A stretch of DNA of 32,000 nucleotides from Planctomycetales bacterium (GTDB lineage: Bacteria > 4484-113 > JAFGCY01). The notes under the pieces are model-generated. The model did not search any database, was not told the origin of the DNA, and saw only the letters and a program-made list of their open reading frames with translations. The position numbers and the translations under genes are program-made. The DNA is taken from positions 720,001 to 752,000 of the forward strand of contig CP060262.1 in assembly GCA_022646745.1 (NCBI GenBank), in the 5' to 3' direction. Shown piece after piece: positions 2,733 to 20,118 of the stretch (its first letter is position 1; every line of letters starts with the position of its first letter).

Positions 2733-3347
2733 TCAGCCCTTGTGCTTGGCAAACTTCTCGGCGACCTTGTCCCAGTTGATGACGTTCCACCACGCGGCGA
2801 TGTAGTCCGGCCGGCGGTTCTGGTAATTCAGGTAGTAGGCATGCTCCCAGACATCGAGGCCGAGGATCGGCTTGTGTCCGATCATGTGCGGGCTGTCCTG
2901 GTTGGCGGTGCTGCCCACGTGCAGCTTGCCGCTGCCGTCCAGCCCGAGCCAGGCCCAGCCGCTGCCGAAGCGGGTGGCCGCCTGGTTGGAGAAGGCTTCC
3001 TTGAAGCCGTCAAACGAGCCGAACACTGAGTTAATGCCGTCCAGCAGGTCGCCTGACGGGGCACCGCCGCCGCCGGGCTTCATGGTCTTCCAGAACAGGC
3101 TGTGGTTGGCATGCCCGCCGCCGTTGTTGATCACGGCCTGGCGGATGTCCTCAGGGACGTCCTTGATGTTCTTCAGCAGCTCCCACACGCTCTTCTCCTG
3201 CAGCTCGGGATGGCCCTCAAGCGCGGAGTTCAGCTTGGCAACGTATCCCGCATGGTGCTTGCCATGGTGGATCTCCATCGTGCGGGCGTCAATGTAGGGC
3301 TCCAGCGCATCGAATGCGTAGGGCAGATCGGGCAGTACATGTGTCAT
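2733..3347 (-). CDS. sodA: Superoxide dismutase, Mn type (Fe/Mn SOD family)
   Basis: [32 protein letters not shown]..., [11 protein letters not shown] and [18 protein letters not shown] are Fe/Mn SOD signatures with Mn-type residues. Start set at ATG 3347 because GGAGGA (3354-3359) lies 6 nt upstream. The track start at 3389 adds 14 implausible residues. Confidence 0.95.
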
Positions 3348-3465
3348 CTTCATTCCTCCGCCTGTCTGATTGCAGTGGCCATCCCACAACGCGTGCCACC
3401 GCGGGCAGGCTTAATACTATCACCGAGCCTGCTGCGTTGTTTCATTGGCGACGGCCTGGCGGGCT

Positions 3466-4320
3466 TCAGGCAGCGGGCTGCTGCGGCAGTGACAGCCGGA
3501 AGCGCTGGCGCGCTGTGTCCACCTCTGGCCAGTCCTGCTCGATGATCGCGAGTACTTCGGCAATCATTCCATGCAGGTCAGCCACTGCGAGTTCCGGCGC
3601 GGCACTGAACAGTGCATTGATGCGCCGTTCCACGTCACGCGGACCGCTGCTGAACTTCGCTTCATACAGGGACAGGCGCTTGAACTCGCCGAAGTGGTAT
3701 ACGGAGTTCAGCGCGCACAGCAGGTGCAGCAGGTGGTTGGATTCCTCGACGAGGATCTGCTGGTAGTGCAGGATGTCACCACGCCGCCAGGCCATCTCGA
3801 GCGGTACCCAGGCCGGGAAGAAAATCAGGTGCGCCTGCAGCATCTTCACCGCCAGCTCACGCGGATAACTGGCAACGTAGTCCTTCAGCCAGGCGGCGGT
3901 CTCCTCGCCATGCAGTACTGATGCATCCACGATGCCGCTGGCGGCCTTCTGCATTGGCGACTCGTGGTTGTGGTTGATGAAGATGTCATCCATCCAGGCC
4001 TTCCAGTGTTCCAGCGAGGCGATGCCGAAGTCGTGCTTGATGCCATCGATGTGGAACGAGATCGCACAGCCCCCCTCGGCCGGGTCCCCGAAGAAGAAGA
4101 TCCAGTCCCCCCCGCCGAAGTGCTGCTTGAATTCCTCAAGCTGTTCGCGGCTGGGGACTTCATCGAAGTAGACCGCCATGTCCACATCACTGGCGGCATC
4201 GGCCAGCCCCTCTGCAACCGAGCCCGTCAGCAGCACGCAGCGCAGGCCCGGAAGTTTCGACAGTTCAGCGACACAGCGTCCGGCGGAAGCCAGACGGATT
4301 TCATTGTGATTGGTATCCAT
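3466..4320 (-). CDS. Nucleotidyltransferase-domain protein (Pol-beta-like NTase fold with a helical C-terminal domain)
   Basis: MDTNHNEIRLA...LLTGSVAEGLADAASDVDMAVYF carries the GS-x(n)-DxD NTase motif. I trimmed the track ORF (3466-4854) to ATG 4320. The upstream 178 residues are low-complexity S/R/P and overlap the convincing + strand gene at 4433. Confidence 0.75.
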   Translation of the reverse strand: MDTNHNEIRLASAGRCVAELSKLPGLRCVLLTGSVAEGLADAASDVDMAVYFDEVPSREQLEEFKQHFGGGDWIFFFGDPAEGGCAISFHIDGIKHDFGIASLEHWKAWMDDIFINHNHESPMQKAASGIVDASVLHGEETAAWLKDYVASYPRELAVKMLQAHLIFFPAWVPLEMAWRRGDILHYQQILVEESNHLLHLLCALNSVYHFGEFKRLSLYEAKFSSGPRDVERRINALFSAAPELAVADLHGMIAEVLAIIEQDWPEVDTARQRFRLSLPQQPAA

Positions 4321-4432
4321 GGCTTGTTTACACCGCGGCAGGACGGCAGGTTTCGCAGATGAAGGACAGCACTGCGCAGGTATTGCTATAAGCTGGTAAT
4401 GGTGCTGGCAGCGGCCAGCGGGGAGAACCTGG

Positions 4433-5653
4433 ATGAAAACCAACCGCAGATTGAGCATCCTGCTCTTGGGCCTGCTGCTGGCGGGCCTCGGGGCCTGCCG
4501 TGAAAGTGAACCGGCGGGAGCTGCCGAGCAGTACACCGGCTTCGAGAACCAGAGCGCGCCGAAGAAGGCGCTGGTGGCCGGCCAGACCGACGACCCGCGC
4601 CTGCGGGACATCAAGTTGCCGCCTGGTTTCCATATTGAGCTGTATGCCGAGGATGTGACCAGTGCACGCTGCCTGAAGCTCAGCCCGGATGGCACGCTGT
4701 TCGTCGGCAGCCGCGGAACCGACCATGTGTTCGCATTGCGGGACACGGATGGAGACTTCGTCGCGGACGAGAAGTTCAGCATCGGCAGCGGGCTGCGCAT
4801 GCCCGTCGGTGTCGAGTTCCGCGACGGAGACCTGTACGTCGCCGAGGTCAGCAAGGTCTGGCGCTATGACGACATCGAGTCCCGCCTGGCCAGCCCGCCG
4901 GACCCGGTGCTGATCGAACGCTACCCCAGTGACGAGCACCATGGCTGGAAGTACATCCGCTTCGGCCCGGACGGCCGGCTCTATGTCCCGGTCGGCGCAC
5001 CCTGCAATGTCTGCACGCGGGACAACCCGATCTACGCCTCCATCACGAGCATCGCAGCCGGCGGCGGCAGCCGGCAGATCGTGGCACAGGGTGTGCGCAA
5101 CACGGTCGGCTTCGACTGGAACCCTGTCAACGGAGAGCTGTGGTTCACTGACAACGGGCGCGACATGCTCGGTGACAACATGCCGCCGGACGAGCTGAAC
5201 CGGATCCCGGCAGGCAGCGGCGTGGATGACGACGCACCGCACTTCGGCTTCCCGTTCTACCATGCCGGTGACATCAAGGACCCGGAGTTCAGTGAGGGCA
5301 AGGGCAAGGCTGACTACATCGCACCTATGCAGAAGCTCGGGCCGCATGTGGCGGGGCTTGGCGTGCGCTTCTACACCGGCAGGATGTTCCCGCAGGAGTA
5401 CCACAACCAGGTCTTCATCGCGGAGCATGGCAGCTGGAACCGCTCGAGCAAGATCGGATACCGGGTGATGCTTGTCAGGCTCGACAAGGACGGTAATGCC
5501 GCATCCTATGAGCCCTTCGCCGAGGGCTGGCTCGGCAATGACGACAAGGTCAGCGGGCGCCCGGTGGCGATCGAGTTACTGCCGGATGGCAGCATGCTGC
5601 TCAGCGACGATTATGCCAACTGCATCTACCGTATCAGCTACAAGGGATCATGA
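4433..5653 (+). CDS. PQQ-dependent sugar (glucose/sorbosone) dehydrogenase family beta-propeller lipoprotein
   Basis: Signal peptide with lipobox LGAC (MKTNRRLSILLLGLLLAGLGAC). NTVGFDWNPVNGELWFTDNGRDMLGDNMPPDELN and AEHGSWNRS are typical of the soluble YliI/sorbosone dehydrogenase family. Confidence 0.85.
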   Translation: MKTNRRLSILLLGLLLAGLGACRESEPAGAAEQYTGFENQSAPKKALVAGQTDDPRLRDIKLPPGFHIELYAEDVTSARCLKLSPDGTLFVGSRGTDHVFALRDTDGDFVADEKFSIGSGLRMPVGVEFRDGDLYVAEVSKVWRYDDIESRLASPPDPVLIERYPSDEHHGWKYIRFGPDGRLYVPVGAPCNVCTRDNPIYASITSIAAGGGSRQIVAQGVRNTVGFDWNPVNGELWFTDNGRDMLGDNMPPDELNRIPAGSGVDDDAPHFGFPFYHAGDIKDPEFSEGKGKADYIAPMQKLGPHVAGLGVRFYTGRMFPQEYHNQVFIAEHGSWNRSSKIGYRVMLVRLDKDGNAASYEPFAEGWLGNDDKVSGRPVAIELLPDGSMLLSDDYANCIYRISYKGS

Positions 5654-5805
5654 GATGTGCTTGTACCGCCAGTCAGTATCCCGGTTAAGGGCTGTTTGAA
5701 GCGCGGTTGAATCGCGGTTGAGATTGGCAATTCTTGACGAACCGATAGTCAATCAGGTGCACAAACGGGTTAGCATTTGCAGCGGAAAACCGCACGGAGA
5801 AGCAA

Positions 5806-6489
5806 ATGTCAATCAACACCCTGCCGGACATCACCTCACTGTGGAAGCACAGCGACCCCGCAGCCAGCCAGGCTGCCTTCATGGAACTGATGCCAGGTGC
5901 CGAAACGGGCGGCAACATTTCCTTCAATGTCACCCTGCTCACCCAGGTTGCCCGGGCCCAGGGCCTGCAGCGCAACCATGAAGCTGCCAACGCCAGCCTG
6001 GACCGCGCCAAGCGCATGCTGGACGAAGGCAACCCGCAGGAACTGCAGCATGCACTGGTGAGCTACCTGCTGGAACGCGGCCGGGTCTACCGTGCCAGCG
6101 GTTATGAGGACCGTGCGGAGGACTACTTCCTGGAGGCCTATGAAATGGCCCTGGATGCCGAGGAAATTGCCATGGCAGTCGATGCCGCCCACATGCTGGG
6201 CCTGACACTGCAGGGTAAGGAATCGGTGGACTGGTTCAGCCGAGCCCTGAAGCATGCTTCCTCCGGCATCAATGCGCAGGTCCGTCGGTGGGAAGCCCCG
6301 CTGTGCGAACTGCTGGGCCGGATCTACGCCGAGGAAGGCCGCTCGGACGAGGCAAAGCGCTTGTTTGAGAGTGCGGTAATCCTGCGCAGCCGCCAGCCCG
6401 CACAAGCTCCCGAGAAGGAACTGCAGTGCAGCGGCGTGGCCTGTGCCTGCCCGGAAAGCGTCGCCGACGGCAGCCTGCTCGTGCCCTGA
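5806..6489 (+). CDS. TPR-like helical repeat protein without a signal peptide; paralog of the N-terminal half of the next gene
   Basis: GGAGAA lies 5 nt upstream of the ATG. TSLWKHSDPAASQAAFMELMPGAETGGN..LLTQVARAQGLQ..YLLERGRVY..FLEAYEMAL..DAAHMLG aligns by eye with residues of 6620-8104. Confidence 0.7.
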   Translation: MSINTLPDITSLWKHSDPAASQAAFMELMPGAETGGNISFNVTLLTQVARAQGLQRNHEAANASLDRAKRMLDEGNPQELQHALVSYLLERGRVYRASGYEDRAEDYFLEAYEMALDAEEIAMAVDAAHMLGLTLQGKESVDWFSRALKHASSGINAQVRRWEAPLCELLGRIYAEEGRSDEAKRLFESAVILRSRQPAQAPEKELQCSGVACACPESVADGSLLVP

Positions 6490-6510
6490 GCCTCCCTCAG
6501 CCGCATCATC

Positions 6511-6516
6511 TATAAT
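6511..6516 (+). promoter_or_regulatory. Candidate -10 box (TATAAT) upstream of the TPR-peroxiredoxin gene
   Basis: Perfect TATAAT in a GC-rich spacer, 104 nt upstream of ATG 6620. No convincing -35 box. Confidence 0.3.
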
Positions 6517-6619
6517 CCGCGCAGCGGCCGTTCAATCACGGGGGCCGTCCGGGCCAGCGCCTCTGCGGGGAAGCGCGCCGGCTGATTCCGGGCCAGATGG
6601 CCTTGAAGCGGAGAAGCTG

Positions 6620-8104
6620 ATGCATTGCCAACACCGGCTGCGGACATCACGGTCCCTGTTCAAGATCTGCCTGCTCAGCCTGCTGCTGTTCGCAGCAGTT
6701 GCCAGCCACTCGGCAGCCAATGCCCAGGCCGACATGAAAGCGGAGGACAAGATGGACAGCCACACCCAGCCTGACTTCACGACCCTGTGGGACTTCAATG
6801 ACGCTGCCGGCACCCGGGCGAAATTCGAGGAAATCCTGCCACTGGCCGAGACCAGCGGCAATGCTGCTTACCTCGCTGAACTACTGACACAGATCGCGCG
6901 TACATACGGTCTGCAGGGCAGCTTCGATGAGGCGCATGCCACGCTTGACCGGGTGGAGGGCATGCTCAGTGGCGACGGGATGGACAAGGCCCGCCTGCGC
7001 TACCTGCTGGAGCGCGGCCGTGCCTTCAATTCATCGAAGAAGCCGGAGCTGGCGCAGCCACTGTTCCTCGAAGCATACGAACTGGGTCTGACAACGGAAT
7101 TTGACGGCCTGACGATTGACGCGGCACACATGCTGGGGATCGTCACCAGCGGCGATGAATCACTGGAATGGAACCACAAGGCGCTGGAACTTGCTGAGAA
7201 AACCACTGATGAAAAGGCTGCCAACTGGAAGGGTGCCTTATACAACAACATGGGCTGGACCTACCTGGACAGCCATCGTCCCCAGGAAGCGCTTCATCTG
7301 TTCAAGAAAGGTGTCGATTTCCGCGAGGCGATGGGGCATGGCGAGCAGACCCGGATGATTGCGCACAGGACCGTGGCTCGCGCGCTCAGGGCACTCGGAC
7401 GCAATGACGAAGCGCTGGAGAAGCTCACGTACATCGCTGACAATTTCCCGGCCAGTGCCGAGGACGGCTTCTGGCATGAGGAACTGGGCGAGAATCTGCT
7501 GGCAACCGGTGATGCGGAAGGAGCCAAGGCTGCATTCACAACCGCTGTACCGATGCTGGAAGCGATGGGCTGGATTGCCACTGAATATCCGGGACGGATT
7601 GAACGCCTGCAGGCCATAATTGACACCGGCCTGCCGCTGCTGGAGATTGGCAGCCAGGCACCGGACTTCACCCTGCCCAACCAGGATGGCAAGGATGTCA
7701 GCCTGGCGGAGGTGCTGGCAAGCGGGCCGGTTGTGCTGGCGTTCTACAAGAAGGATGACACCGGTGGTTGAACGGCTGAGCTGGTTGAGTTCAACCGACT
7801 GAATGACGACTTTGACAAGCTTGGCGCAACGGTGGCGGGTATCAGCCCGGACAGCGTGGAGAGCCACGATTCATTCTGCAGTGCGCAGGGCTTTGGCTTT
7901 GACCTGCTGTCTGACGACGGCGGTACTGTCGGCAAGCAATACGGCACGTGGTCTGCGGAGGGCAGCCCGGGACGCGTAAGCTACGTGATCGGACAGGACG
8001 GCTATGTCGCTGGCTTCTTTGCCGGGGCACGTGACTTCGAGCAGCACAGCGCGGCAGCGCTGGAGATCCTCGGGAGAATGGCTGGCAAGGGTGGATCGGA
8101 GTGA
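6620..8104 (+). CDS. Secreted TPR-repeat / peroxiredoxin (Bcp/PrxQ-like, AhpC-TSA family) fusion protein with in-frame TGA (7769-7771) read as selenocysteine
   Basis: ATG 6620 has GGAG 6 nt upstream. Signal peptide MHCQHRLRTSRSLFKICLLSLLLFAAVASHSAANA-QA. The TPR part is paralogous to 5806-6489. It is followed by QAPDFTLPNQDGKDVSLAEVLASGPVVLAFYKKDDTGG-[TGA]-TAELVEFNRLNDDFDKLGATVAGISPDSVESHDSFCSAQGFGFDLLSDDGGTVGKQYG...RVSYVIGQDG. Track ORFs 6443-7771 and 7832-8104 are in the same frame and separated only by this TGA. Confidence 0.75.
7783..7796 (+). promoter_or_regulatory. Candidate bacterial SECIS apical hairpin (GGUUG-AGUU-CAACC) starting 11 nt after UGA 7769-7771
   Basis: 5-bp stem plus a U-G extension (7782/7797) and tetraloop AGUU. 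Same geometry and loop as the hairpin after the second TGA, with one compensatory pair change. Confidence 0.55.
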
Positions 8105-8817
8105 TCCAGATCCTGCAGCATCATGACTGCGAAGGGCCGGCCTATCTGGCAACGATGATGGCGGCGCGCGAGCTGGACTGGAAGGTGCTGCGCGCGGACC
8201 GCGGCGAGATCCCAAAGGACCTCAATGGCCTGGATGCGCTGGTCATCCTCGGCGGTCCGCAGAGTGTGAATCGCACCGACCTGTTTCCCTGGATGCGCCG
8301 TGAGATCGAGATCGTGCGCCTGGCGATTGATGCCGGCCTGCCTGTGCTCGGGATCTGCCTCGGGGCGCAGGTCGTGGCGACTGCCTGCGGGATGCAGGTT
8401 GTCAACTGCGACCACAAGGAGATCGGCTGGTTCCCGGTCAGGCGGCTGGCCAGCGGCAGCGAGGGCTGGTTCGCCGATGTGCCGGAGGAGTTCACATGCT
8501 TCCACTGGCATGGCGAGCGGATGATCCCGCATGAGGACATGCCGTCACTTGCCGCAACGGATGTGACGCCCTGCCAGGCATGCTCCCCGCTGCCGGGAGT
8601 GCTGGCCCTGCAGTTTCACCTCGAGGTGACGGAGGAAGCGATCCGGGCCATGGCCGCCGCATTCCATAAGGAAATGGCGGATGAGCTGATCGGGCTGGAC
8701 AGCCTGCTCTGGGAACTGCCGGAGCAGCTCGCCAACAGCCAGCGACTGGCGGATAATGTGATCGGCCGCTGGTTCGAGCGGGTGATGGCAAGAGATGCGT
8801 TTGGAGAAGCTGAATGA
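8101..8817 (+). CDS. Class I glutamine amidotransferase (GMP-synthase-like GATase1 domain protein)
   Basis: LPVLGICLGAQ (nucleophile Cys) and LQFHLE (His/Glu) motifs. The GTG start overlaps the stop of the upstream gene (GTGA). Its own stop overlaps the next ATG (ATGA), indicating translational coupling. Confidence 0.85.
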   Translation: MIQILQHHDCEGPAYLATMMAARELDWKVLRADRGEIPKDLNGLDALVILGGPQSVNRTDLFPWMRREIEIVRLAIDAGLPVLGICLGAQVVATACGMQVVNCDHKEIGWFPVRRLASGSEGWFADVPEEFTCFHWHGERMIPHEDMPSLAATDVTPCQACSPLPGVLALQFHLEVTEEAIRAMAAAFHKEMADELIGLDSLLWELPEQLANSQRLADNVIGRWFERVMARDAFGEAE

Positions 8818-9275
8818 AACTGCTTGAAGCGGGGAGCGCGGCTCCCGGATTCACGCTGCCCAACCAGCATGGCAGCAATGTCAGCCTGGCGGAGTTCCAG
8901 GGCAGCCAGCCGGTGGTGCTGATCTTCTACCCGAAGGATGCCACGGGGGGTTGAACGGCAGAATTGGCTGAGTTCAGCCGCCGCAAGGCCGAGTTCGATG
9001 AGCATGACGCAGTGCTGCTGGGGATCAGCGGTGACAGTGTGGAAAGTCACAAGGCATTTGCCGAGGACCAGTGCTACCCCTTCAACCTGCTGGCGGATAC
9101 CGACAATGCAGTCCGCAAGGCATACAAGGCGACGGATATCACCGGTCTGCTGCCGGCTCGCGTGACTTATGTAATTGGTCGCGAGGGGAAGATAGCAGGC
9201 TACTGCAACAGCGCGATCGACATGAAGCTGCATGCAGCGCGCGCGCTGGAGATCATCGAGGGTCTAGAGGTCTAA
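8814..9275 (+). CDS. Stand-alone Bcp/PrxQ-like peroxiredoxin with in-frame TGA (8952-8954) read as selenocysteine, 153 codons
   Basis: MKLLEAGSAAPGFTLPNQHGSNVSLAEFQGSQPVVLIFYPKDATGG-[TGA]-TAELAEFSRRKAEFDEHDAVLLGISGDSVESHKAFAEDQCYPFNLLADTDNAVRKAYK...RVTYVIGREGKI. The track shows only the C-terminal part (8964-9275). The N-terminal 46 codons are in the same frame. Confidence 0.8.
8966..8979 (+). promoter_or_regulatory. Candidate bacterial SECIS apical hairpin (GGCUG-AGUU-CAGCC) starting 11 nt after UGA 8952-8954
   Basis: Same offset, stem length and AGUU loop as 7783-7796. The third stem pair is C-G here and U-A there. Confidence 0.55.
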
Positions 9276-9278
9276 GCC

Positions 9279-9959
9279 CTACTTCGGGTCCTCGCCGTCT
9301 TGCTTTGGCTGGTCCTCTGCGGATCCACCATCCTCAGCACCGCTGTTTGCAGCCTGCTCACCGGTTTCCACATGCGGCATTGGCTTTCCGGTCAGCGGGT
9401 CGATCACCATCCGGCCCTGCTTGATCTCACGGTCGCGGATCAGCATCGCCTCGTTAACACGGCCGAGGTCCGCATCCTGGTAGCTCAGCAGGAACTTCCC
9501 GCCCCGGCGGCGCATCGCCATCAGCTCAATCGTGCGGTCATCATGGGTCCAGCGGGCGAAGAACTGGCTTTCACCGGTATTGCCGGCGGCTTCAGCGGTT
9601 TCACCGTTCACATCAAAGATCTTGCTGATGGTCTTTTCCACGTCCCGGCCGTCGATTTCCGCCCGCTTCTCCACGTAGATGCAGGTCCCCTCGTAGAAGC
9701 GGACCACATACTGCACTTCCTCATGGTGCCGGCAGGCGATCTCCCAGGTGCTGGTGGTGGCCACGTCATAGGCGATTTCCCAGTCCTTGCCATGCTTGTC
9801 GTCGTAGATCATCTTCGCCGCATCCTCCTGGCTCATGCCATAGCTGAAGGCCTTGTCGTTGAGGAATTCGGTCTCAGCCCAGGCCCTGAGCGGCAGCAGG
9901 CAAAGCAGCAACAGGGGCAGCAGCAGTCGCAAAACAGGCTTTGTGGTGCCATTGGTCAT
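9279..9959 (-). CDS. Secreted hypothetical protein
   Basis: Signal peptide MTNGTTKPVLRLLLPLLLLCLLPLRAWA-ETE. GGAG lies about 9 nt upstream. Protein-like composition and an acidic C-terminal tail. Convergent with the peroxiredoxin, with only 3 nt between the stop codons. Confidence 0.7.
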   Translation of the reverse strand: MTNGTTKPVLRLLLPLLLLCLLPLRAWAETEFLNDKAFSYGMSQEDAAKMIYDDKHGKDWEIAYDVATTSTWEIACRHHEEVQYVVRFYEGTCIYVEKRAEIDGRDVEKTISKIFDVNGETAEAAGNTGESQFFARWTHDDRTIELMAMRRRGGKFLLSYQDADLGRVNEAMLIRDREIKQGRMVIDPLTGKPMPHVETGEQAANSGAEDGGSAEDQPKQDGEDPK

Positions 9960-10208
9960 ATGTATCGCTCCGGGCTAAGTTTAACCGAGCCGGTCGGAGG
10001 CAGCTGTCCAGCGGCAGGCCAGCTTCTGAATAATATGGACCGCATATAGGCAAAACCGCTGAAAAATGCTAAATTATGTGTTCGATTAGGCCCGTTTCGG
10101 GCCGGATATTGTTTCGGGGCGTTAACCTCTAGCGTTATCGCACTGTGGTTGAGAGCCGCCAGGCTGCAAAGTCGGTGGCGGTGTAACAACATTTGGAGGG
10201 TTTATACG

Positions 10209-11156
10209 ATGCGGATTCTTCTTGCAGCATTAAGCCTGATCGTGCTGATCTGCAGTGCGGCCGCTGCTCCCGCGGAGCTCGAGGGCACGATTGATGCCCA
10301 CTTCGCCTCCGTCAACGCCCTGGGTGTGAACCCGGTGGACGGCATCCTTTACAGCGCCGGCAAGGATGGCCGCGTGCGTATCTGGGACCCCGACAGCCTC
10401 GAGATGATCCTCGAGGTGCAGGCCTGCCTGACCGGTGTGAACGACATCGCCGTAAGCAATGACGGTTCGCTTGTCGCCACTGCCGGCAATGACGGCTTCA
10501 TCCAGGTATGGGATGCCCTGACAGCCGAGCTTGAGCTGGCCTTCCCGGCCCACGACGGCCCGGTCAACACCCTGGCCTTTGATGTGAACGATGAGTTCCT
10601 CTACAGTGGCGGCGACGACGGTTTCGTCCGCAGCTGGGAAGTCGAGGGCGAGGATGACATCTTCGTGCTCAACTGGGAGGCCTTCACCCACGTCAACGGT
10701 GTGAACGACCTGCTGGTCAACAGCGAGGCTGAGTACATGTTCAGCGGTGGTGCGGACGGCAAGATCGCCTTCTTCGACACCCTGGCCGGTCGCCTCGAGA
10801 ACACCGTGCAGGCCTTTGAGAATGCCGAAGTGCTCTGCCTGAGCTTCGCCAAGGGTGAGGCCTGCCTTGCAGCGGGCGCCACCAACGGTGAGTTCCGCGC
10901 CTGGGACGCCGCCACCGGCACCCAGATCTGCGAAGTGCGTGCCCATGCCGGCAACGTGAACACCATCTACAGCGCCAACGGCCTCGTGGTCACCGGCGGT
11001 GAGGATGGCCACATCCGCATGTGGAACGACCACGGCCAGATGGTCGGCGACCTCCAGGCACACGTGCTTGGCGTGAACGCCTTCACCGTCAGCGATGACA
11101 CCATCTTCACCGGCGGTTCCGACTACAAGGTCCGTGTCTGGGGCGCCAACTTCTAG
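10209..11156 (+). CDS. WD40/beta-propeller repeat protein with N-terminal signal peptide
   Basis: MRILLAALSLIVLICSAAAAPAE. Repeated GG.DG.IR.WD / VN.L.. units (GKDGRVRIWD, GNDGFIQVWD, GDDGFVRSWE, GEDGHIRMWN, GSDYKVRVWG). GGAGG lies 9 nt upstream of ATG 10209, so the track start at 10149 was trimmed. Confidence 0.85.
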   Translation: MRILLAALSLIVLICSAAAAPAELEGTIDAHFASVNALGVNPVDGILYSAGKDGRVRIWDPDSLEMILEVQACLTGVNDIAVSNDGSLVATAGNDGFIQVWDALTAELELAFPAHDGPVNTLAFDVNDEFLYSGGDDGFVRSWEVEGEDDIFVLNWEAFTHVNGVNDLLVNSEAEYMFSGGADGKIAFFDTLAGRLENTVQAFENAEVLCLSFAKGEACLAAGATNGEFRAWDAATGTQICEVRAHAGNVNTIYSANGLVVTGGEDGHIRMWNDHGQMVGDLQAHVLGVNAFTVSDDTIFTGGSDYKVRVWGANF

Positions 11157-11184
11157 AAGTCGTCCTGACTGAATCTGATTTACT

Positions 11185-11216
11185 AAGGCCAGCCTGCGGG
11201 CTGGCCTTTTTGTTTT
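11185..11216 (+). terminator. Rho-independent terminator of the WD40 gene
   Basis: AAGGCCAGCC-tgcg-GGCTGGCCTT followed by TTTTGTTTT. Confidence 0.8.
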
Positions 11217-11288
11217 GCCATCTCACGCAAGCGTTCGATGGACTCTGGTTGCGCACTGGACCGGAAAGCAAGTTCCCGGATCCAGTGC
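11216..11288 (+). other. Structured repeat motif, copy B (hairpin H1 11218-11241, hairpin H2 11253-11288)
   Basis: H1 is CCATC-tc-ACGC-aa-GCGT-tc-GATGG. H2 is GCACTGG...CCAGTGC. It is homologous to 30762-30834 with compensatory substitutions in both helices. It starts directly after a terminator T-tract. Confidence 0.5.
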
Positions 11289-11808
11289 AGACATTGTAGG
11301 TAAATCGGGTTAAGCCGTAGGCGAAATTCCGCTGTAAGCGGAACTGAGCCAAGGGCGAAGTCCCGCCACAGGCGGGATCGCGCTGAAGTTATGGGAGATT
11401 GGAAGATGCACCGAGCAATCAGCCAGGAGCTCGCTTCGGGCAGTATTGCATACCCGCGATTGCTTGCATGAGCGGGAAGGAGAATCAGACTGGCTCTGCG
11501 CTGGCGCATCCGGGGCGCGCTAAAGTTGCAGTTTCACCCTGTTTCATTTGCATTGCGGCGCAATAGCCCTGCGACATCGCAGGTACAATATGTATCGATG
11601 AATCCGCGCAAGGAGACAGTCGTGGGACGTGACATGATCACACGTTTCGCCCGCACCTACCGTTGCTGCAGCGCCAAGGTGCTGCAAAACAAGCTGCTCG
11701 CCTCCACACCTACTTAATCCCCCGCGGCCCTGCCCGCATCTGCACACGTTTCCACATGCAAGCACGGCAAGTCCGTGACATTTCGTTTGATGTTCCCAGG
11801 AGACAACA

Positions 11809-13743
11809 ATGGGTGATTCAGTAGCAACAAAGATCCTCAAGCAGCATCTCGTCGACGGCGAGATCGCCCCCGGCAATGAGATCGGGATCCGCATCGACCA
11901 GACCCTGCACCAGGACGCCACCGGCACGATGGTGATGCTGGAGCTGGAGGCTATGGGCCTCGATCGCGTGAAGACGGAACTGTCCGTCACCTACGTGGAC
12001 CACAACATGCTGCAAAGCGACTTCCGCAATGCGGATGACCACCGCTACCTGCAAAGCGTGGCCCAGAAGCTCGGCATCCACTACAGCCGTCCCGGCAACG
12101 GGATCTGCCACCAGGTGCACCTTGAGCGCTTCGGCGCACCGGGCCGCACCCTGCTCGGTTCCGACTCGCACACCCCGACCGGCGGCGGACTCGGCATGAT
12201 CTCGATCGGCGCCGGCGGACTGGACGTGGCGGTGGCGGCTGGCGGCGGGGCCTACTACCTGCCCTGCCCGAAGATCATAGGCGTGCGCCTGACAGGCAAG
12301 CTGCAGCCCTGGGTGGCCAGCAAGGACATCATCCTCGAAATGCTGCGCCGCCTGACCGTGAAGGGCGGCTTCGGAAAGATCTTCGAATACCACGGCCCGG
12401 GCATCGAATGCCTGGACGTTCCGGCTCGCAGCACCGTCTGCAACATGGGTGCGGAGCTCGGCGCCACCACCAGCCTGTTCCCGAGTGACTGGCAAACGAA
12501 GAAGTACCTCGAGGCGATGGGCCGCGGTGAGGTCTGGCAGGAACTGATGCCGGACGCCGACGCCGAGTATGACGAACTGATCGAGATCAACCTCGACGAA
12601 CTGGAGCCGCTGATCGCCAAGCCGAGCAACCCGGACCTCGTGGTCCCGGTGCGTGAGGTGGCCGGCACCAAGCTGCACCAGGTCTGCGTCGGCAGCTGCA
12701 CCAACTCGAGCTACCACGACCTGGCAATTTGCGCCAATGTGCTGAAGGACAACATCGTCGCTGACAACGTCAGCATGACGCTCACCCCCGGCAGCCGCAA
12801 CGTATTCAACGAAATCGCCGCCAACGGCATGCTGGCGGACATCATCGCGGCCGGCGCGCGCATCCTCGAAAGCGCATGCGGGCCCTGCATCGGCATGGGC
12901 CAGGCCCCGCCGAGCCAGGGCGTGAGCCTGCGCACCTTCAACCGCAACTTCCTCGGCCGCAGCGGCACGAAGGACGCCTACGTCTACCTCTGCAGCCCGG
13001 AGGTGGCGGCCGTCAGCGCGCTGCGCGGCGAGATCACCGACCCGCGCGACTGGGGCGAGTACCCGGCGGTCGAGATGCCGGAGCAGTACCTCGTTGACGA
13101 CCGGATGATCATCGACCCGCCGGCGGATGCCAGCGCGGTCGTGGTTGAGCGTGGTCCGAACATCGTGCCGCTGGAGGACTTCACGGCCACCCCGGACGGG
13201 ATCGAGGCTGAGGTGATCCTCAAGACCGCTGACAACATCTCCACTGACCACATCATGCCGGCCGGTGCCAAGGTGCTGCCCTACCGCTCGAACATCCCCG
13301 AGATCAGCAAGTTCACCTTCGGCGTGGTTGACAGCGAGTTCCACGACCGCGCGATGGCCATGAAGGAAAACGGCGGCAGCATCATCATCGGTGGCAGCAA
13401 CTACGGCCAGGGCTCGTCGCGCGAGCATGCGGCGATCGCCCCGCGCTACCTCGGCGTGAAGGCCGTGATCGTGAAGGACTTCGCCCGCATCCACTGGAAC
13501 AACCTGATCAACTTCGGCATCGTGCCGCTGCAGTTCGCCGATCCGGCGGACTATGACAGCGTGGCCCAGGGCGACCGGCTCGCGATCCGCGACCTGCACA
13601 GCCAGATCCGCAATGGCAGCGAGGTCAGGGTTGACAACCTGACGAAGGGCACGAGCTTCACCGCCACACATTCGCTCAGCGGACGCCAGGTGCATGTGCT
13701 GCTGGCCGGCGGGCTGATCAACACCGTGAAGGAAGCGAGCTAG
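11809..13743 (+). CDS. Aconitase-family hydratase, ~645-aa 'Aquifex-type' architecture, with a full set of Fe-S ligand cysteines
   Basis: Carries GICHQVHLE, GSDSHT, NMGAELGAT, VGSCTNSSYHD, ACGPCIGMGQ, RTFNRNFLGRSG and GQGSSREHAA. AGGAGA lies 6 nt upstream of the ATG. Confidence 0.9.
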   Translation: MGDSVATKILKQHLVDGEIAPGNEIGIRIDQTLHQDATGTMVMLELEAMGLDRVKTELSVTYVDHNMLQSDFRNADDHRYLQSVAQKLGIHYSRPGNGICHQVHLERFGAPGRTLLGSDSHTPTGGGLGMISIGAGGLDVAVAAGGGAYYLPCPKIIGVRLTGKLQPWVASKDIILEMLRRLTVKGGFGKIFEYHGPGIECLDVPARSTVCNMGAELGATTSLFPSDWQTKKYLEAMGRGEVWQELMPDADAEYDELIEINLDELEPLIAKPSNPDLVVPVREVAGTKLHQVCVGSCTNSSYHDLAICANVLKDNIVADNVSMTLTPGSRNVFNEIAANGMLADIIAAGARILESACGPCIGMGQAPPSQGVSLRTFNRNFLGRSGTKDAYVYLCSPEVAAVSALRGEITDPRDWGEYPAVEMPEQYLVDDRMIIDPPADASAVVVERGPNIVPLEDFTATPDGIEAEVILKTADNISTDHIMPAGAKVLPYRSNIPEISKFTFGVVDSEFHDRAMAMKENGGSIIIGGSNYGQGSSREHAAIAPRYLGVKAVIVKDFARIHWNNLINFGIVPLQFADPADYDSVAQGDRLAIRDLHSQIRNGSEVRVDNLTKGTSFTATHSLSGRQVHVLLAGGLINTVKEAS

Positions 13744-13962: not shown

Positions 13963-15909
13963 ATGGGACTGACAGTTGCCCAGAAGATACTGAAGGAGCA
14001 TCTCGTCGAGGGCGAGATGGTGATCGGCCAGGAAATCGGCATCCGGATTGACCAGTGCCTGCAGCAGGACGCCACTGGCACCATGGTGATGCTGGAGCTG
14101 GAGGCGATGGGCCTGCCGCAGGTGAAGACCGATGTCAGCGTGCAGTATGTCGACCACAACCTCGTGCAGAACGACTACAAGAACGCCGACGACCACCTGT
14201 TCCTGCTGAGCGCCGCGCAGCGCTTCGGCCACTGGTATAGCCGCCCCGGCAACGGCATCAGCCACCCGGTGCACTACGAGCGCTTCGGCAAGCCCGGTGC
14301 CACGATGCTCGGCTCGGACAGCCATACCCCGGCTGCCGGCGGCATGGGCATGATCGCAATCGGTGCCGGCGGCATTGACGTGGCGATGGCCAACGCGGGC
14401 GAGCCCTTCTTCTTCAAGATGCCGAAGATCTGGGGCGTGAAGCTAACCGGCGAGCTGCCTGACTGGGTGTCCAGCAAGGACATCATCCTCGAGATGCTGC
14501 GCCGCCACGACGTGAAGGGCGGGCTGGGCTGCATCATCGAATACTACGGCCCCGGCGTTGACCAGCTCAGTGCAATGGACCGCCACGTGATCTGCAACAT
14601 GGGAGCGGAGCTCGGTGCCACCACCAGCCTGTTCGCCAGTGACGGCGTCACGAAGGAATTCCTGCGCCAGATGGGCCGCGAGGGCGACTGGAAGGAACTG
14701 CTGCCGGATGCCGATGCGAAGTATGACCGCGAGGAGCATATCGAGCTCAGTGAGCTGGAGCCGCTGATCGCCATGCCGACATCCCCGGGCAACGTTAAGA
14801 AGGTCAGCGAGGTCGCCGGCGAGAAGATCTACCAGAGCTACATCGGCAGCAGTGCCAACCCGGAGTACCGCGCGCTCGCAATGGCCAGTGAGGTTGTCAA
14901 GGAGCGCAGCGTGGCTCCCCACGTTTCCTTCGATGTCAACCCGGCCAGCCGCCAGATCCTTGAGAACATCGTCTACGACGGCTACATGACCGCCCTGATC
15001 CACAGCGGCGCGCGCATCCACCAGGCCGGCTGCAACGGCTGCATCGGCATGGGCCAGGCCCCGGCCACGCATGAGATCAGCGTGCGCACCGTGCCGCGCA
15101 ACTTCCCCGGCCGCAGTGGCACGAAGGAGGACAAGGTCTGCCTCGTCAGCCCGGAGACCGCCGTTGCCAGCGCCGTGACCGGTGTGATCACCGACCCGCG
15201 CACGCTCGGCATGCCCTACCCGAAGATCAAGGACCCCGAGAACCCGCGCCTGAACACCGAGCAGCTGCTGGCGCCGCTGCCGCTGGAGGAAGCGCTGAAG
15301 GTCGAGCTGCGCAAGGGCCCGAACGTCAAGAGCCTGCCGCTGTTTGATGAGGTGCCTGACACAATCGAGGTCAAGGTGCTGCTGAAGGTCGGTGACAACA
15401 TCACCACTGACCACATCTCACCGGCCGGCAGCCGCGTGCTGCCCTTCCGCTCGAACATCCCCGCGATCGCCGAGTTCAGCTATGAGCTGATCGACCCGGA
15501 CTACCCGAAGAACGCACTGGCAATCAAGGAGCAGGGCGGGCATGCGATCGTCGGCGGCTTCAACTACGGCCAGGGTTCATCGCGCGAGCATGCCGCCTTG
15601 GCCCCGCGCTACCTCGGCCTGCGCCTCGTGCTGGTGAAGGACTTCGCCCGCATCCACTGGCAGAACCTGATCAACTTCGGCATCCTGCCGCTGCAGTTTG
15701 ACAACGAGGCGGACTATGACGCGCTGGACAACGGCGACGTGCTTCGCATCGAGAACCTGCACCAGCAGGTGACCGACGGGCCGGAGGTGACGGTACGCAA
15801 CATGACCAGGGGCACGGACATCCCGGCGCACCATACGCTCTCGCAGCGCCAGATGGAAGTGCTGCTTAAGGGTGGCCTGATCAACTGGGTCAAGGCGAAG
15901 CATCAGTAG
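13963..15909 (+). CDS. Aconitase-family paralog lacking the first Fe-S ligand cysteine (GSSAN instead of GSCTN)
   Basis: Collinear with 11809-13743 (GSDSHT, NMGAELGAT, GCNGCIGMGQ, RTVPRNFPGRSG, GQGSSREHAA). The differences are IGSSANPEY at the position of VGSCTNSSY and GISHPVHYE at GICHQVHLE. GGGAGAAG lies upstream of the ATG. Confidence 0.9.
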   Translation: MGLTVAQKILKEHLVEGEMVIGQEIGIRIDQCLQQDATGTMVMLELEAMGLPQVKTDVSVQYVDHNLVQNDYKNADDHLFLLSAAQRFGHWYSRPGNGISHPVHYERFGKPGATMLGSDSHTPAAGGMGMIAIGAGGIDVAMANAGEPFFFKMPKIWGVKLTGELPDWVSSKDIILEMLRRHDVKGGLGCIIEYYGPGVDQLSAMDRHVICNMGAELGATTSLFASDGVTKEFLRQMGREGDWKELLPDADAKYDREEHIELSELEPLIAMPTSPGNVKKVSEVAGEKIYQSYIGSSANPEYRALAMASEVVKERSVAPHVSFDVNPASRQILENIVYDGYMTALIHSGARIHQAGCNGCIGMGQAPATHEISVRTVPRNFPGRSGTKEDKVCLVSPETAVASAVTGVITDPRTLGMPYPKIKDPENPRLNTEQLLAPLPLEEALKVELRKGPNVKSLPLFDEVPDTIEVKVLLKVGDNITTDHISPAGSRVLPFRSNIPAIAEFSYELIDPDYPKNALAIKEQGGHAIVGGFNYGQGSSREHAALAPRYLGLRLVLVKDFARIHWQNLINFGILPLQFDNEADYDALDNGDVLRIENLHQQVTDGPEVTVRNMTRGTDIPAHHTLSQRQMEVLLKGGLINWVKAKHQ

Positions 15910-17202: not shown

Positions 17203-18651
17203 TCAGACCGCCGAGTCCTTGGACGAGGCGGCAGATCGCTTCGGTACATACATATCCGTCACCGTGCCGAGGAAGACCTCTGCAGCGAAGCCGACTGATT
17301 CAGCGAGCGTCGGATGCGCGTGGATCGTCTCCGCGATGTCCTCCGCATGCGCCCCCATCTCGATTGCCAGCGCCGCCTCCGCGATCAGGTCGCCCGCGCC
17401 GACGCCGACGATGCTGCAGCCGAGGATGCGGCCTGTGGCGTTGTCAAACACCATCTTTGTCAGGCCCTCCATGCGGTCCAGCGCGATCGCCTTGCCGCTG
17501 GCCGCCCAGGGGAACTTGCCGACGCCGTAGTCGATACCCTGTTCCTTCGCCTCCTCCTCCGTCAGGCCGGCCCAGGCCAGCTCCGGGTCGGTGAACACCA
17601 CGGCCGGGATGCAGCGCTTGTCCCAGACGGAGTGGTGCCCGGCGATCACCTCGGCGGCGACGCGGCCCTCGTGGCTGGCCTTGTGCGCCAGCATCGGCTG
17701 CCCGGCGATGTCACCGATGGCGAAGATATGCGGCACGTTGGTGCGCATCTGATTGTCAATTCTGATGAACCCGCCCTCGCCGACTTCCACGCCGGCCATC
17801 TCGATGGCGAGCATGTCACTGTTGCTGCGGCGGCCGATGCTGACGAGCACCCGGCCATACTCACCGCTGAACGCACCCTCGCTGCCCTCGAAGTCCACCT
17901 TGACCGACTTGCCGGTGTCCTTGATGCCGGTGACCTTCGTTGACAGCATGATCCTGCCGAACTGGCCCTTCAGGCGCTTCTCCAGCGGGCGCACCGCGTC
18001 GCGGTCGGCCCCGCTGAGGATGTGGTCCTGCAGCTCCACCACGTCAACCTTGCTGCCCAGTGCGGCATACACGCTGCCGAGCTCCAGGCCGATGTAGCCA
18101 CCGCCGATCACCAGCAGGCTGTCCGGGATCTCCTCGATCTCGAGCGCCGTCGTGCTGTCCAGCACCTTGTCGCTGCCAATCTCGAGGAAGGGTAGGCGCA
18201 GGATGCGGCTGCCGGCGGCGATGATGCAGTGCCTGAATTCAATCGTATCGCCACTCTTCTTCAGCGTGACGGAATTCGGCGATGCGAACTCGGCGTAGTC
18301 GGAGATGAACTCGCAGCCACGCTGCTTCGCCATGCCCTTCAGGCCGCCGGTCAGGCGGTTTACCACGCTGTCCTTGAACTGGCGCAGCTTGAGCTTGTCA
18401 ATCTGCGGACTGCCGTAGCTAACACCATGCTTTTCCAGCTCAGCGGCTTCAGTGATGTGCGCCGCGATGTGCAGGTAGGCCTTGCTCGGGATGCAGCCCA
18501 CGCGCAGGCAGACGCCGCCGGGGACCTCGTTTTCGTCCACGAGGATGGTATTCACACCGAGGTCGGCGGCGCGGAAGGCAGCGGTATAGCCGCCGGGCCC
18601 GGCTCCGATCACGAGTAACTCACAGGTCTTTGTTGCCATGTCTGTTTCCAT
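17203..18651 (-). CDS. lpdA: Dihydrolipoyl dehydrogenase (E3 of the pyruvate dehydrogenase complex)
   Basis: ELLVIGAGPGGYTAAFRAADLG, the redox-active GGVCLRVGCIPSK, and the C-terminal HAHPTLAE interface motif. The start is ATG 18651 (METDMATK) or ATG 18639 (MATK). The track start at 18687 is a TTG inside a repeat. Confidence 0.93.
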   Translation of the reverse strand: METDMATKTCELLVIGAGPGGYTAAFRAADLGVNTILVDENEVPGGVCLRVGCIPSKAYLHIAAHITEAAELEKHGVSYGSPQIDKLKLRQFKDSVVNRLTGGLKGMAKQRGCEFISDYAEFASPNSVTLKKSGDTIEFRHCIIAAGSRILRLPFLEIGSDKVLDSTTALEIEEIPDSLLVIGGGYIGLELGSVYAALGSKVDVVELQDHILSGADRDAVRPLEKRLKGQFGRIMLSTKVTGIKDTGKSVKVDFEGSEGAFSGEYGRVLVSIGRRSNSDMLAIEMAGVEVGEGGFIRIDNQMRTNVPHIFAIGDIAGQPMLAHKASHEGRVAAEVIAGHHSVWDKRCIPAVVFTDPELAWAGLTEEEAKEQGIDYGVGKFPWAASGKAIALDRMEGLTKMVFDNATGRILGCSIVGVGAGDLIAEAALAIEMGAHAEDIAETIHAHPTLAESVGFAAEVFLGTVTDMYVPKRSAASSKDSAV

Positions 18652-18784
18652 AGCGGCGGCATCCTGCCGCCGGTTGGTGATGAGCAATGAAGAATGAGCA
18701 ATGAGTCAGACATATGCTTCGATAGTCTCATTGCTCATTGCTCATAACTCATTGCTTCAGTCAGCGGCTGGAAGCCGCCGCTAC
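18651..18784. repeat. ~134-bp composite palindromic element in the aceF-lpdA spacer: REP (reverse) 18651-18672, GAGCAATGA-type inverted repeat 18677-18705/18727-18755, REP (forward) 18762-18784
   Basis: Left end TAGCGGCGGC-atcct-GCCGCCG; right end CAGCGGC-tggaa-GCCGCCGCTAC. The inner stem AATGAGCAATGAG/CTCATTGCTCATT is 13 bp and perfect, with a 21-nt loop. The element fills almost the whole spacer between the aceF stop (18787) and the lpdA start. Confidence 0.7.
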
Positions 18785-18786
18785 CG

Positions 18787-20097
18787 TCAGCCACCCAGAA
18801 GCAGCGCTTCCGGGTCTTCGAGTGATTTCTTCAGGCTGTCCACGAAGCGTGCGGCGCTGGCGCCGTCTATCACGCGGTGGTCATAGCTCAGGCCGATCGG
18901 CATCAGCAGGCGCGGTACGATCTGGCCGTTGACAACAGCCGGTTCGAGGCGGCTCTGGCCGATGCCGAGGATGCTGACCTGCGGCCAGTTTATGATCGGG
19001 GTGAACTCGAGTCCGCCGATGCCGCCCTGGTTGGAGATCGTGAAGGTGGATCCGCTCAGCAGGTCCGGGTCGATCTTGCCACTGCGGGCATCGTCCGCGG
19101 TCTCCTTTAAGTGCCTGCCAAGTTCATAGATGTCCATCCGGTCCGCATCACGCAGGGAGGGCACCAGCAGTCCGCGCTCGGTGTCGACGGCCATGCCGAT
19201 GTGGTAGTAGTCCTTCCAGACGATCTCCTCATTGGCGACGTCGATCGAGGCATTGAACTGCGGGTAGCGCTTGAGCGCGGTCAGCACAGCCTTGATCACG
19301 AACACGGTCATGGTCAGCGCGCTGCCCATTTCCTTCGCCTTTTCCTTGTGGCGGCCGCGGAATTCCTCCATCTCCGTGATGTCAATCCGCTCGAACTGCG
19401 TGATGCGCGGCACCTGCGACCAGGAGACGGCCATCGCGTCCGCGGTCAGGCGGCGCACCTTGCTCATCTTCTCGCGGCGCACCGGGCCCCACTTGCCGAA
19501 GTCCGGCAGGGCAGGGACGGCAACACCGCTTGCCACGCCGCCTGTTGCCACTGCAGCGGCGGGAGCACCCTTGGCAAAGGACTGGACATCCTCAACCGTG
19601 ATGCGGCCATGCCTGCCGCTGCCGGGTACATTGCCCAGCGCCACGCCCAGCTCGCGGGCAGTGCGGCGTGCAGCCGGGCCGGCTGGCAACAGGGAGTTGT
19701 CAGCACTGGAAGCCGGGGCAGGTGCAGCCGCAGCAGGGGCCGGAGCCGCTGCTGAACTGCCGTTGCCACTGGCTGCCGGGGCAGCCACAGTCTCCTGCGG
19801 GACCGGGTCTTCCTGCAACTCGGCGGTATCCGCCTTGCTGTTGTCAGCTGCGGATGCAGCACCGCCGGCGACCGTGAACAGCACGGCACCGACCGGCACG
19901 TTCTCACCCTCGGAGATGTGCACCTTCTCGACAGTGCCGCTTTCGGTGCTGGGCACCTCGACCACAGCCTTGTCAGTCTCCAGCTCGACGAGGATCTGGT
20001 TCTCCTCGATCGTGTCACCGACGGCGACGAGGATCTTCAGCACATCACCGGCGGCGATGCCATCTCCCATCTCGGGCAGTTTGATCTCTACGGACAT
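18787..20097 (-). CDS. aceF: Dihydrolipoamide acetyltransferase (E2) with a single lipoyl domain and a long Ala/Pro linker
   Basis: Lipoyl motif LVELETDKAVVEVPS, an AAPAPAAAAPAPAS linker, a subunit-binding region (PAARRTARELGV), and the catalytic C-terminus SYDHRVIDGA. GGGGAGAAGAAAGGAA lies upstream of the ATG. Confidence 0.93.
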   Translation of the reverse strand: MSVEIKLPEMGDGIAAGDVLKILVAVGDTIEENQILVELETDKAVVEVPSTESGTVEKVHISEGENVPVGAVLFTVAGGAASAADNSKADTAELQEDPVPQETVAAPAASGNGSSAAAPAPAAAAPAPASSADNSLLPAGPAARRTARELGVALGNVPGSGRHGRITVEDVQSFAKGAPAAAVATGGVASGVAVPALPDFGKWGPVRREKMSKVRRLTADAMAVSWSQVPRITQFERIDITEMEEFRGRHKEKAKEMGSALTMTVFVIKAVLTALKRYPQFNASIDVANEEIVWKDYYHIGMAVDTERGLLVPSLRDADRMDIYELGRHLKETADDARSGKIDPDLLSGSTFTISNQGGIGGLEFTPIINWPQVSILGIGQSRLEPAVVNGQIVPRLLMPIGLSYDHRVIDGASAARFVDSLKKSLEDPEALLLGG

Positions 20098-20118
20098 TTC
20101 CTTTCTTCTCCCCTCGGC

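Follow-up and report, generated by a model that had tools for sequence, protein, structure and literature searches.

Two peroxiredoxin (Prx) genes in a 32,000-nt stretch of a Planctomycetales bacterium genome (GenBank assembly GCA_022646745.1, contig CP060262.1, positions 720,001 to 752,000; hereafter the window) carry an in-frame TGA codon at the place of the catalytic cysteine (Cys). This raises the question of whether these codons are decoded as selenocysteine (Sec), and which RNA signal would direct the decoding. A first-pass annotation of the window had proposed that two matching hairpins downstream of the TGA codons are candidate Sec insertion sequences (SECIS). One of the two genes is fused to a tetratricopeptide repeat (TPR) domain (copy 1) and the other is a stand-alone gene (copy 2) (Table 1). 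Comparison with orthologues, which were collected through genome, metagenome and protein-index searches (L and P numbers below), supports the proposal: the hairpin has 6/6 pairs in 12/12 Sec forms and is decayed in 3/3 Cys forms. We estimate the probability that it is a SelB-binding bacterial SECIS element, or at least the apical core of one, at about 0.78.

The hairpin in the two window copies

With the U of UGA numbered as nt 1, the hairpin, here termed H-A, pairs nt 14-19 with nt 24-29 (U14-G29, G15-C28, G16-C27, Y17-R26, U18-A25 and G19-C24) and closes a loop of A20-G21-U22-U23. The bases were rechecked in both copies and agree with the original description. In copy 1, the TGA is followed by ACGGCUGAGCU and then by GGUUG, AGUU and CAACC at 7783-7796. 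In copy 2, it is followed by ACGGCAGAAUU and then by GGCUG, AGUU and CAGCC at 8966-8979. The hairpin starts 11 nt after both UGA codons, and the extra U14-G29 pair is possible in both copies. The sole stem difference is U17-A26 versus C17-G26, a double change that alters Val (GTT) to Ala (GCT) and Asn (AAC) to Ser (AGC). Folded alone, the hairpin has a free energy of -5.9 to -6.3 kcal/mol in copy 1 and -8.3 to -8.4 kcal/mol in copy 2.

The occurrence of the hairpin exceeds chance. A 6-bp stem with an nGUn tetraloop is found at a fraction of 1.6e-4 of window positions. Even when two mismatches are allowed, the 16-mer TGGYTGAGTTCARCCG has two sites only in the 32 kb, which are the two hairpins, compared to 0.05 expected. 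The shuffle z-scores of the bare 16-nt hairpins are -3.7 and -4.1. Copies 1 and 2 are paralogues that share 53% amino acid identity and are therefore not independent observations; the weight of the argument rests on the orthologues.

Selenoprotein status of the two genes

Both in-frame TGA codons lie inside AhpC/TSA domains, at the position of the peroxidatic Cys of homologues and in the context ..FYxKDxTGG-U-TAEL.. (TxxU). Both copies share the motif T-G-G-U, and the corresponding codon is TGC in the orthologues L001:1956, L161:864 and L161:4139, to which 105 further Cys-type sites can be added. The TGA of copy 1 aligns with the TGC of L001:1956 and L161:864 and is retained in L002, L169/L176, L170 and L177. 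The TGA of copy 2 aligns with the TGC of L161:4139 (P0001, 72% identity) and is retained in L001, L002, L162-168 and L172-174. In all, 12 distinct sequences have TGA at the catalytic Cys site, and they come from several independent assemblies.

The ratio of nonsynonymous to synonymous substitution rates (dN/dS) 3' of the TGA is 0.14-0.25 for copy 1 and 0.12-0.18 for copy 2 (0.12-0.26 overall, with dS of at least 1), so translation continues in frame past the TGA. TGA also serves as a normal stop codon here. It ends copy 1 (8102-8104) and the glutamine amidotransferase (GATase)-like gene between the two Prx genes (8815-8817), and TGA is therefore not generally reassigned in this genome. Public gene calls end copy 1 at the in-frame TGA (P0121, 383 aa, 100% identical), and relatives of copy 2 are found there as split genes of 46 and 97 aa. 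A scan for other TGA-interrupted open reading frames (ORFs) in the window returned 56 candidates, a number typical for sequence of 62% GC, and none of the 56 beyond the two Prx genes has a Cys-type active-site context around the TGA, as judged from 20-residue peptides. No sel genes were found among the ORFs examined in the 32-kb window. Based on the codon alignment and the selection pattern, both genes are very probably selenoproteins.

The conserved Pro of the PxxxTxxU/C motif is present in copy 2 (P-K-D-A-T-G-G-U). In the Sec form of copy 1 this residue is Lys (7748-7750, YKKDDTGGU), as it is in L002, L169 and L177, and it is Ala in L170. The Cys-form orthologues of copy 1 retain the motif Pro. 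The codon before the Sec-UGA (7766-7768 and 8949-8951) is GGT in 11/11 Sec forms, and GGT makes up 14% of the Gly codons in window ORFs. In the Cys forms, the codon before the Cys site is GGT once and GGC twice. The invariant GGT may reflect a context effect on UGA decoding.

Conservation in Sec forms and decay in Cys forms

The 12 distinct Sec forms comprise both window copies, copy 2 of L001/L172, both copies of L002, the copy-2 genes of L162, L166, L167 and L168, and the copy-1 genes of L169, L170 and L177. Most pairing and codon statistics use 11 of these sequences, with L177 as the twelfth. Three Cys-form orthologues with conserved synteny are available, namely copy 1 of L001/L172, copy 1 of L161 and copy 2 of L161. 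A neighbour-joining tree built from the Prx domains has two clades. The copy-2 genes make up one of them, with the Cys form of L161 at its base. In the other, which holds the copy-1 genes, the Sec form L170 branches off first, and a Cys subclade and a Sec subclade follow, the latter including window copy 1. A metagenome scan added distant relatives only (at most 47% identity), and a second Sec-Prx lineage, described below, is among them.

Every pair cell of H-A (66/66) holds a standard pair in the 11 Sec sequences. Pair 17-26 is C-G in eight and U-A in three of them; L177 is also paired at 6/6 positions, which gives eight C-G and four U-A among the 12. The loop A20-G21-U22-U23 is invariant in the 12 distinct Sec forms. 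Only 2/500 column shuffles reached the observed paired fraction or covariation score, and pairing falls to 11-73% when the partner strand is slid by 1-3 nt. RNAalifold, given the alignment alone, returns exactly H-A. L170, a TPR-fused copy-1 orthologue, carries the C-G / Ala-Ser version, so both pair states exist among copy-1 orthologues.

The first-pass annotation had pointed out that Cys orthologues with the same hairpin would reduce it to a consequence of the encoded peptide. The three Cys forms do not keep it. At 17-26 they have C.A (Ala and Asn, in copy 1 of L001/L172 and in copy 1 of L161) or A.A (copy 2 of L161), and their loops are altered to AAUA (L001/L172 copy 1), AGUA (L161 copy 1) and AAUU (L161 copy 2). 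The residue after Thr is also changed, from Ala to Leu. The energies of H-A are -8.3 to -8.7 kcal/mol in the C-G type and -5.9 to -6.3 kcal/mol in the U-A type, compared to -2.2, -2.0 and +2.2 kcal/mol in the Cys forms, and the z-scores at the hairpin positions are near 0 in Cys forms versus about -4 in Sec forms. The collected loci contain 105 further distinct Cys-type Prx sites, and 6/6 pairs in the H-A register are found at none of them (0/105); the mode is 2-3 pairs, as expected at random. The tree contains two independent Sec/Cys transitions, and the hairpin is lost in both.

Constraint on RNA and on peptide

A total of 13 of the 94 codons of the Prx domain have an invariant third position in the 11 Sec sequences, and five of these are consecutive (nt 15, 18, 21, 24 and 27). 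These five third positions correspond exactly to the span of H-A and form the sole run of five in 94 codons. The flanking third positions 6, 9, 12, 30 and 33 vary freely. For the five prespecified codons, joint invariance has a probability of 2.3e-5, and for a run of at least five anywhere the probability is 0.002. At other places in the genes, synonymous sites are saturated (dS of at least 1). The hairpin needs the codons GCT (10% of Ala codons) or GTT (8% of Val codons), which are rare in window usage. Because of their rarity, back-translation of LAEFSR or LVEFNR with local codon usage yields the full hairpin with a probability of only 0.04-0.05. Cys orthologues show changes of A to H, F to Y and S to N at the residues encoded by the hairpin, so the protein tolerates other residues there. 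Taken together, the sequence comparisons indicate that the hairpin is more than a mere consequence of the peptide.

Comparison with known bacterial SECIS elements and Sec-peroxiredoxins

The consensus model of bacterial SECIS (bSECIS) elements is that of bSECISearch by Zhang and Gladyshev, as summarized in PMC13188914. The model has a loop of 3-9 nt, a stem of 4-16 bp, a G in loop position 1 or 2 that is usually followed by G or U, a distance of 16-37 nt from the UGA to the loop, and a minimum free energy (MFE) of -7.5 kcal/mol or below (PMC13188914). The window hairpins resemble this model in several respects. They are stem-loops at nt 14-29, directly 3' of an in-frame Sec-UGA within the coding region. 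The loop has 4 nt, the stem has 5 bp plus a U-G wobble, and the loop (AGUU) has G at position 2 with U next. The spacing between UGA and loop is 16 nt (nt 4-19), which is the exact lower limit, and the stem is also near the lower limit. The threshold of -7.5 kcal/mol is reached by the C-G type to which copy 2 belongs (-8.3 to -8.7 kcal/mol). SECIS hairpins have also been described as 6-8 bp long, with a conserved G at a distance of about 20 nt from the UGA (PMC4605307); here the G stands 18 nt after it.

The first-pass annotation had stated that the apical hairpin of Escherichia coli fdhF also starts 11 nt after the UGA and presents G and U in its loop. This statement proved correct when the fdhF sequence of E. 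coli / Salmonella (PMC4489274) was folded here: the apical hairpin starts at G15, has a loop of G22-G23-U24-C25 and contains one bulged U. Both the fdhF and the window hairpins lie in the coding region right after the Sec-UGA, with a stem that starts at nt 15. The 5' arm GGUUG is found in fdhF and in window copy 1, and G-U occupies positions 2-3 of the tetraloop in both systems. The differences lie in the lower stem, which is not conserved here, whereas fdhF has a 40-nt two-part helix, and in the loop, which is AGUU instead of GGUC. The conserved G is at nt 21 instead of nt 23, 2 nt nearer to the UGA. By analogy, the window hairpin would work like the fdhF apical hairpin, but we do not file it as fdhF-type because the bulge and the lower helix are lacking.

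Sec-peroxiredoxins with a TxxU motif are a long-known and abundant bacterial selenoprotein family (PMC13188914), with 253 Sec sequences in the Global Ocean Sampling (GOS) survey (PMC2398784). The window proteins share with this family, which includes PrxU of Eubacterium acidaminophilum and the abundant marine Sec-Prx, the PF00578 domain, the T-x-x-U motif and many Cys homologues. Neighbouring selenoprotein genes or domain fusions, as seen here, are also known for the family (PMC13188914, PMC2398784). Unlike PrxU, the window proteins are nearest to BCP/PrxQ, and the PrxU model matches them weakly (49-51 bits vs a cut-off of 270 bits). Copy 1 further differs in its TPR fusion and in the lack of the conserved Pro of PxxxTxxU. 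The TPR fusion is not among the Prx fusions mentioned in the GOS survey passages (PMC2398784).

The second Sec-Prx lineage, recovered from metagenomes (L136, L147, L152a/b and L156a/b), shares the ..GG-U-TAEL.. context, a hairpin right after the UGA and a G at loop position 2. Its hairpins differ from the window type in having 7-8 bp with a 1-nt bulge, a start at about nt 17 and a loop CGGGAY at nt 25-30, and the two types have no common hairpin sequence. Sec-Prx lineages therefore place different SECIS-like hairpins at the same location. The sites of the second lineage are L152:504 and 957, L156:2624 and 3077, L136:2636, L147:2630 and L154:436; the context in L136, L147, L152 and L156 is ..GG-U-TAELxSLRD... 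Tandem Sec-Prx pairs occur twice in this lineage (L152 and L156), and L154 folds differently.

Evidence against the SECIS reading and rival explanations

A number of observations weigh against H-A as a SECIS element. A search of the window against Rfam at gathering and permissive thresholds gave no relevant match, in a database without a matching bacterial SECIS model. A tRNA search of the 32-kb window found no tRNA at all, hence no tRNA-Sec in it. The stem length lies close to the lower bound of the accepted range, and the U-A type, including copy 1, misses the energy threshold of -7.5 kcal/mol with -5.9 to -6.3 kcal/mol, or -6.0 to -8.0 kcal/mol when weak, non-conserved extensions are included. 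The bulged U of fdhF (6 bp plus bulged U) is missing from the window hairpin and from 12/12 Sec sequences. The compensatory change at pair 17-26 proposed for the two window copies does covary in the larger alignment with all cells paired, but on the tree it maps to one branch as a single event, and no variation is seen in the remaining five pairs of H-A; formal covariation support is thin for these two reasons. The Sec forms show no variation in the peptide AEL[AV]EF[SN]R, and the constraint on codon positions 1 and 2 is not cleanly divisible between protein and RNA. Lastly, single-sequence MFE folding favours other structures in window copy 1, L002 copy 1 and L162, and inclusion of 30 nt of upstream context abolishes H-A, together with its main competitor, in most sequences.

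This competitor is a longer hairpin, here termed H-B, that pairs nt 5-14 with nt 20-29 around a loop of G15-G-Y-U-G19. H-B itself could be the functional element, or H-A and H-B could form a switch, with H-A being secondary; we consider this improbable. When the first 30-45 nt are folded, H-B comes out as the MFE structure for window copy 1, L002 copy 1 and L162-165 (P = 0.87-0.99), with energies of -11.1 kcal/mol in window copy 1 (also in the 30-nt fold) and L002 copy 1 and -15.2 kcal/mol in L162-165. For window copy 2, the 30-nt fold gives H-B -10.4 kcal/mol. The 5-bp core of H-B (10-14/20-24) is retained by 11/11 Sec forms, where changes at nt 12 and 13 preserve pairing. However, these transitions are the sole synonymous options (Glu, and Leu CTG/TTG) and are uninformative for H-B. 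Of the 11 sequences, 2 lack the outer pair 5-29, 6 lack 6-28, 3 lack 8-26 and 6 lack 9-25, and H-B as a whole is 84.5% paired, without covariation and with scores identical to those of shuffles. Its loop lies 11 nt after the UGA, under the bSECIS range of 16-37 nt (PMC13188914). H-B also leaves unexplained the invariant third positions 15 and 18, which would fall in its loop, and the double change at 17-26. While UGA occupies the A site, the mRNA channel of the ribosome should cover nt 5-13, and H-B would then be unable to exist at the moment of decoding. The placement of SECIS at the mRNA entrance of the ribosome is consistent with this argument (PMC4605307). Single-sequence MFE and partition-function folding depends on context length and does not decide between the two hairpins. 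H-A wins such folds in window copy 2, L001, L002 copy 2 and L167/168, and with nt 1-13 excluded it is the MFE structure in 10/11 Sec forms, the exception being window copy 1, where a non-conserved alternative is better by 1.4 kcal/mol. The warning in the first-pass annotation that folding might favour the alternative pairing was correct for some single-sequence folds, but not for the alignment, in which the outer pairs of H-B are broken and do not covary and RNAalifold gives H-A.

It is quite improbable that the hairpin is a by-product of the ELxEF peptide and codon bias, or of gene conversion between the paralogues, with Sec insertion directed by another signal. Such an origin would fit the invariance of AEL[AV]EF[SN]R in the Sec forms and the fact that CTG, GAG, TTC and AGC/AAC are preferred codons in the genome. 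A crude scan for bSECIS-like hairpins, limited to perfect stems, also separates Sec and Cys genes poorly (19/105 vs 7/14). Yet a hairpin with a probability of 0.04-0.05 per lineage given the peptide, owing to the rare GCT or GTT, has been kept in 12 sequences with saturated synonymous sites, and the Cys orthologues accept substitutions in it, so the protein can do without this exact peptide. RNAalifold showed no other conserved structure in the 45 nt after the UGA. Gene conversion between paralogues as the cause of the common hairpin is excluded by its conservation across genomes at saturated synonymous divergence, and the copies differ at 17/26. A reading without any SECIS, in which the TGA codons are true stops (in pseudogenes, split genes or assembly errors) or are reassigned to a standard amino acid, is highly improbable. 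Public gene callers do break both genes at the TGA, but the same TGA stands at the catalytic Cys in 12 distinct sequences from independent assemblies, purifying selection is strong on both sides of it, and either half alone would not be a functional Prx fold. The use of TGA to end neighbouring genes speaks against general reassignment, and Sec-Prx with a TxxU motif is a well-known selenoprotein family.

Proposed mechanism and implications

If H-A is the SECIS element, then with UGA in the A site nt 1 to about 13 would lie within the mRNA channel, and the hairpin would stand at the channel entrance. The C-terminal winged-helix domains of SelB would bind the hairpin via loop nucleotides G21/U22. 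The complex of SelB, GTP and Sec-tRNASec would be tethered next to the A site in this way and could outcompete release factor 2. We infer SelB binding, the channel-entrance geometry and actual Sec insertion for both genes.

The Sec-Prx genes and their hairpin are a new example of a known mechanism in known families (Prx with TxxU and bacterial SECIS), and the current understanding of Sec decoding is unchanged. Public records annotate both genes wrongly, as split or truncated at the TGA; the annotation should read Sec-peroxiredoxin for both. The locus provides a natural experiment in which Sec and Cys versions of one gene occur in syntenic and, in one case, nearly identical genomes. The RNA element appears to be upheld via compensatory amino acid changes during Sec use and to decay after a change from Sec to Cys. 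Being compact, the hairpin is also suited to testing bacterial SECIS models and SECIS-based gene finders at their lower limits. We put forward more tentatively, as a possibility that is open to considerable doubt, that the 16-nt bulge-free hairpin is the complete minimal SECIS of an uncultured lineage (UBP7 / 'Planctomycetales' metagenome-assembled genomes) at the lower edge of the model, and that Sec versus Cys at copy 1 is a recombining polymorphism. Genomes with flanks of 98-100% identity would then have either a Sec allele whose hairpin is intact or a Cys allele, 66-84% identical, whose hairpin is decayed. If this is true, selenoprotein status at one locus would be swapped by allele replacement and not by point mutation.

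Sec and Cys alleles at copy 1

The window and the syntenic locus L172 share 95-100% identity over window positions 2900-6500 and 8300-11000. Between these blocks, window 6500-8000 compared to L172:3900-5485 shows identity down to 76-84% in the TPR part and 66% in the Prx part of copy 1. The window carries a Sec allele of copy 1 with an intact hairpin; L172 carries a Cys allele with a decayed hairpin, which groups with copy 1 of L161 in the tree. This pattern suggests a localised replacement of alleles, by which near-identical genomes exchange Sec and Cys versions. The comparison with L172 shows a second divergent spot at window 11000-11600 (33-78% identity), which is intergenic and lies upstream of the first of two aconitase genes.

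Gene content and organization of the locus

The features of the locus are listed in Table 1. In Pfam searches, copy 1 matches AhpC-TSA (PF00578; E 2.7e-34) and TPR_12, and copy 2 matches AhpC-TSA (PF00578; E 6e-36); the PF00578 matches are well above the gathering score in both copies. The top NCBIfam matches of copy 2 are thiol peroxidase and PrxQ models, both under their cut-offs. The closest models for both Prx domains are BCP/PrxQ-type thiol peroxidases. The TPR-Prx fusion of copy 1 is real, because full-length Cys-form orthologues of 494 aa exist (P0122 and P0123).

Table 1. Positions of the two peroxiredoxin genes, their Sec codons and candidate SECIS hairpins, and the intervening gene in the window
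Feature	Position	Strand	Description
Copy 1	6620..8104	+	Hydrophobic N-terminal segment, TPR domain and C-terminal BCP/PrxQ-type peroxiredoxin; probable selenoprotein gene, 494 codons including Sec
GATase-like gene	8101..8817	+	Class-I glutamine amidotransferase-like; Pfam GATase E 2.5e-18; between both Prx genes
Copy 2	8814..9275	+	Stand-alone BCP/PrxQ-type peroxiredoxin; probable selenoprotein gene, 153 codons including Sec
Probable Sec-UGA, copy 1	7769..7771	+	Context ..KKDDTGG-U-TAELVEF..; peroxidatic Cys position
Probable Sec-UGA, copy 2	8952..8954	+	Context ..YPKDATGG-U-TAELAEF..; PxxxTxxU motif
Candidate SECIS, copy 1	7782..7797	+	UGGUUG-AGUU-CAACCG; U-A at pair 17-26
Candidate SECIS, copy 2	8965..8980	+	UGGCUG-AGUU-CAGCCG; C-G at pair 17-26

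Overlaps of 4 nt are found at both gene junctions: GTGA at 8101-8104 joins the GTG start of the GATase-like gene to the stop of copy 1, and ATGA at 8814-8817 joins the TGA stop of the GATase-like gene to the ATG of copy 2. These overlaps suggest that the TPR-Prx, GATase-like and Prx genes form a translationally coupled operon. The order TPR-Prx / GATase-like / Prx is kept in L161, L164 and L172-174. The L002 locus has no GATase-like gene, and its two Sec-Prx genes are adjacent.

The start of copy 1 (6620-6740) encodes a hydrophobic, signal-peptide-like segment (..LFKICLLSLLLFAAVASHSAANAQA..), and based on this N-terminus the TPR-Prx selenoprotein may be exported or membrane-anchored. The product of the gene upstream of copy 1 (5806-6489) is a TPR protein of 227 aa. 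It is similar to copy 1 in the TPR part, with LLERGR...FLEAYE...DAAHMLG in common. It is probably a tandem paralogue of this part and is kept in L172-175. Further downstream are two tandem aconitase-family paralogues at 11809-13743 (644 aa) and 13963-15909 (648 aa). The aconitase pair adjoins pyruvate dehydrogenase E1/E2/E3 genes on the minus strand (17203-22806), an ordinary housekeeping context.

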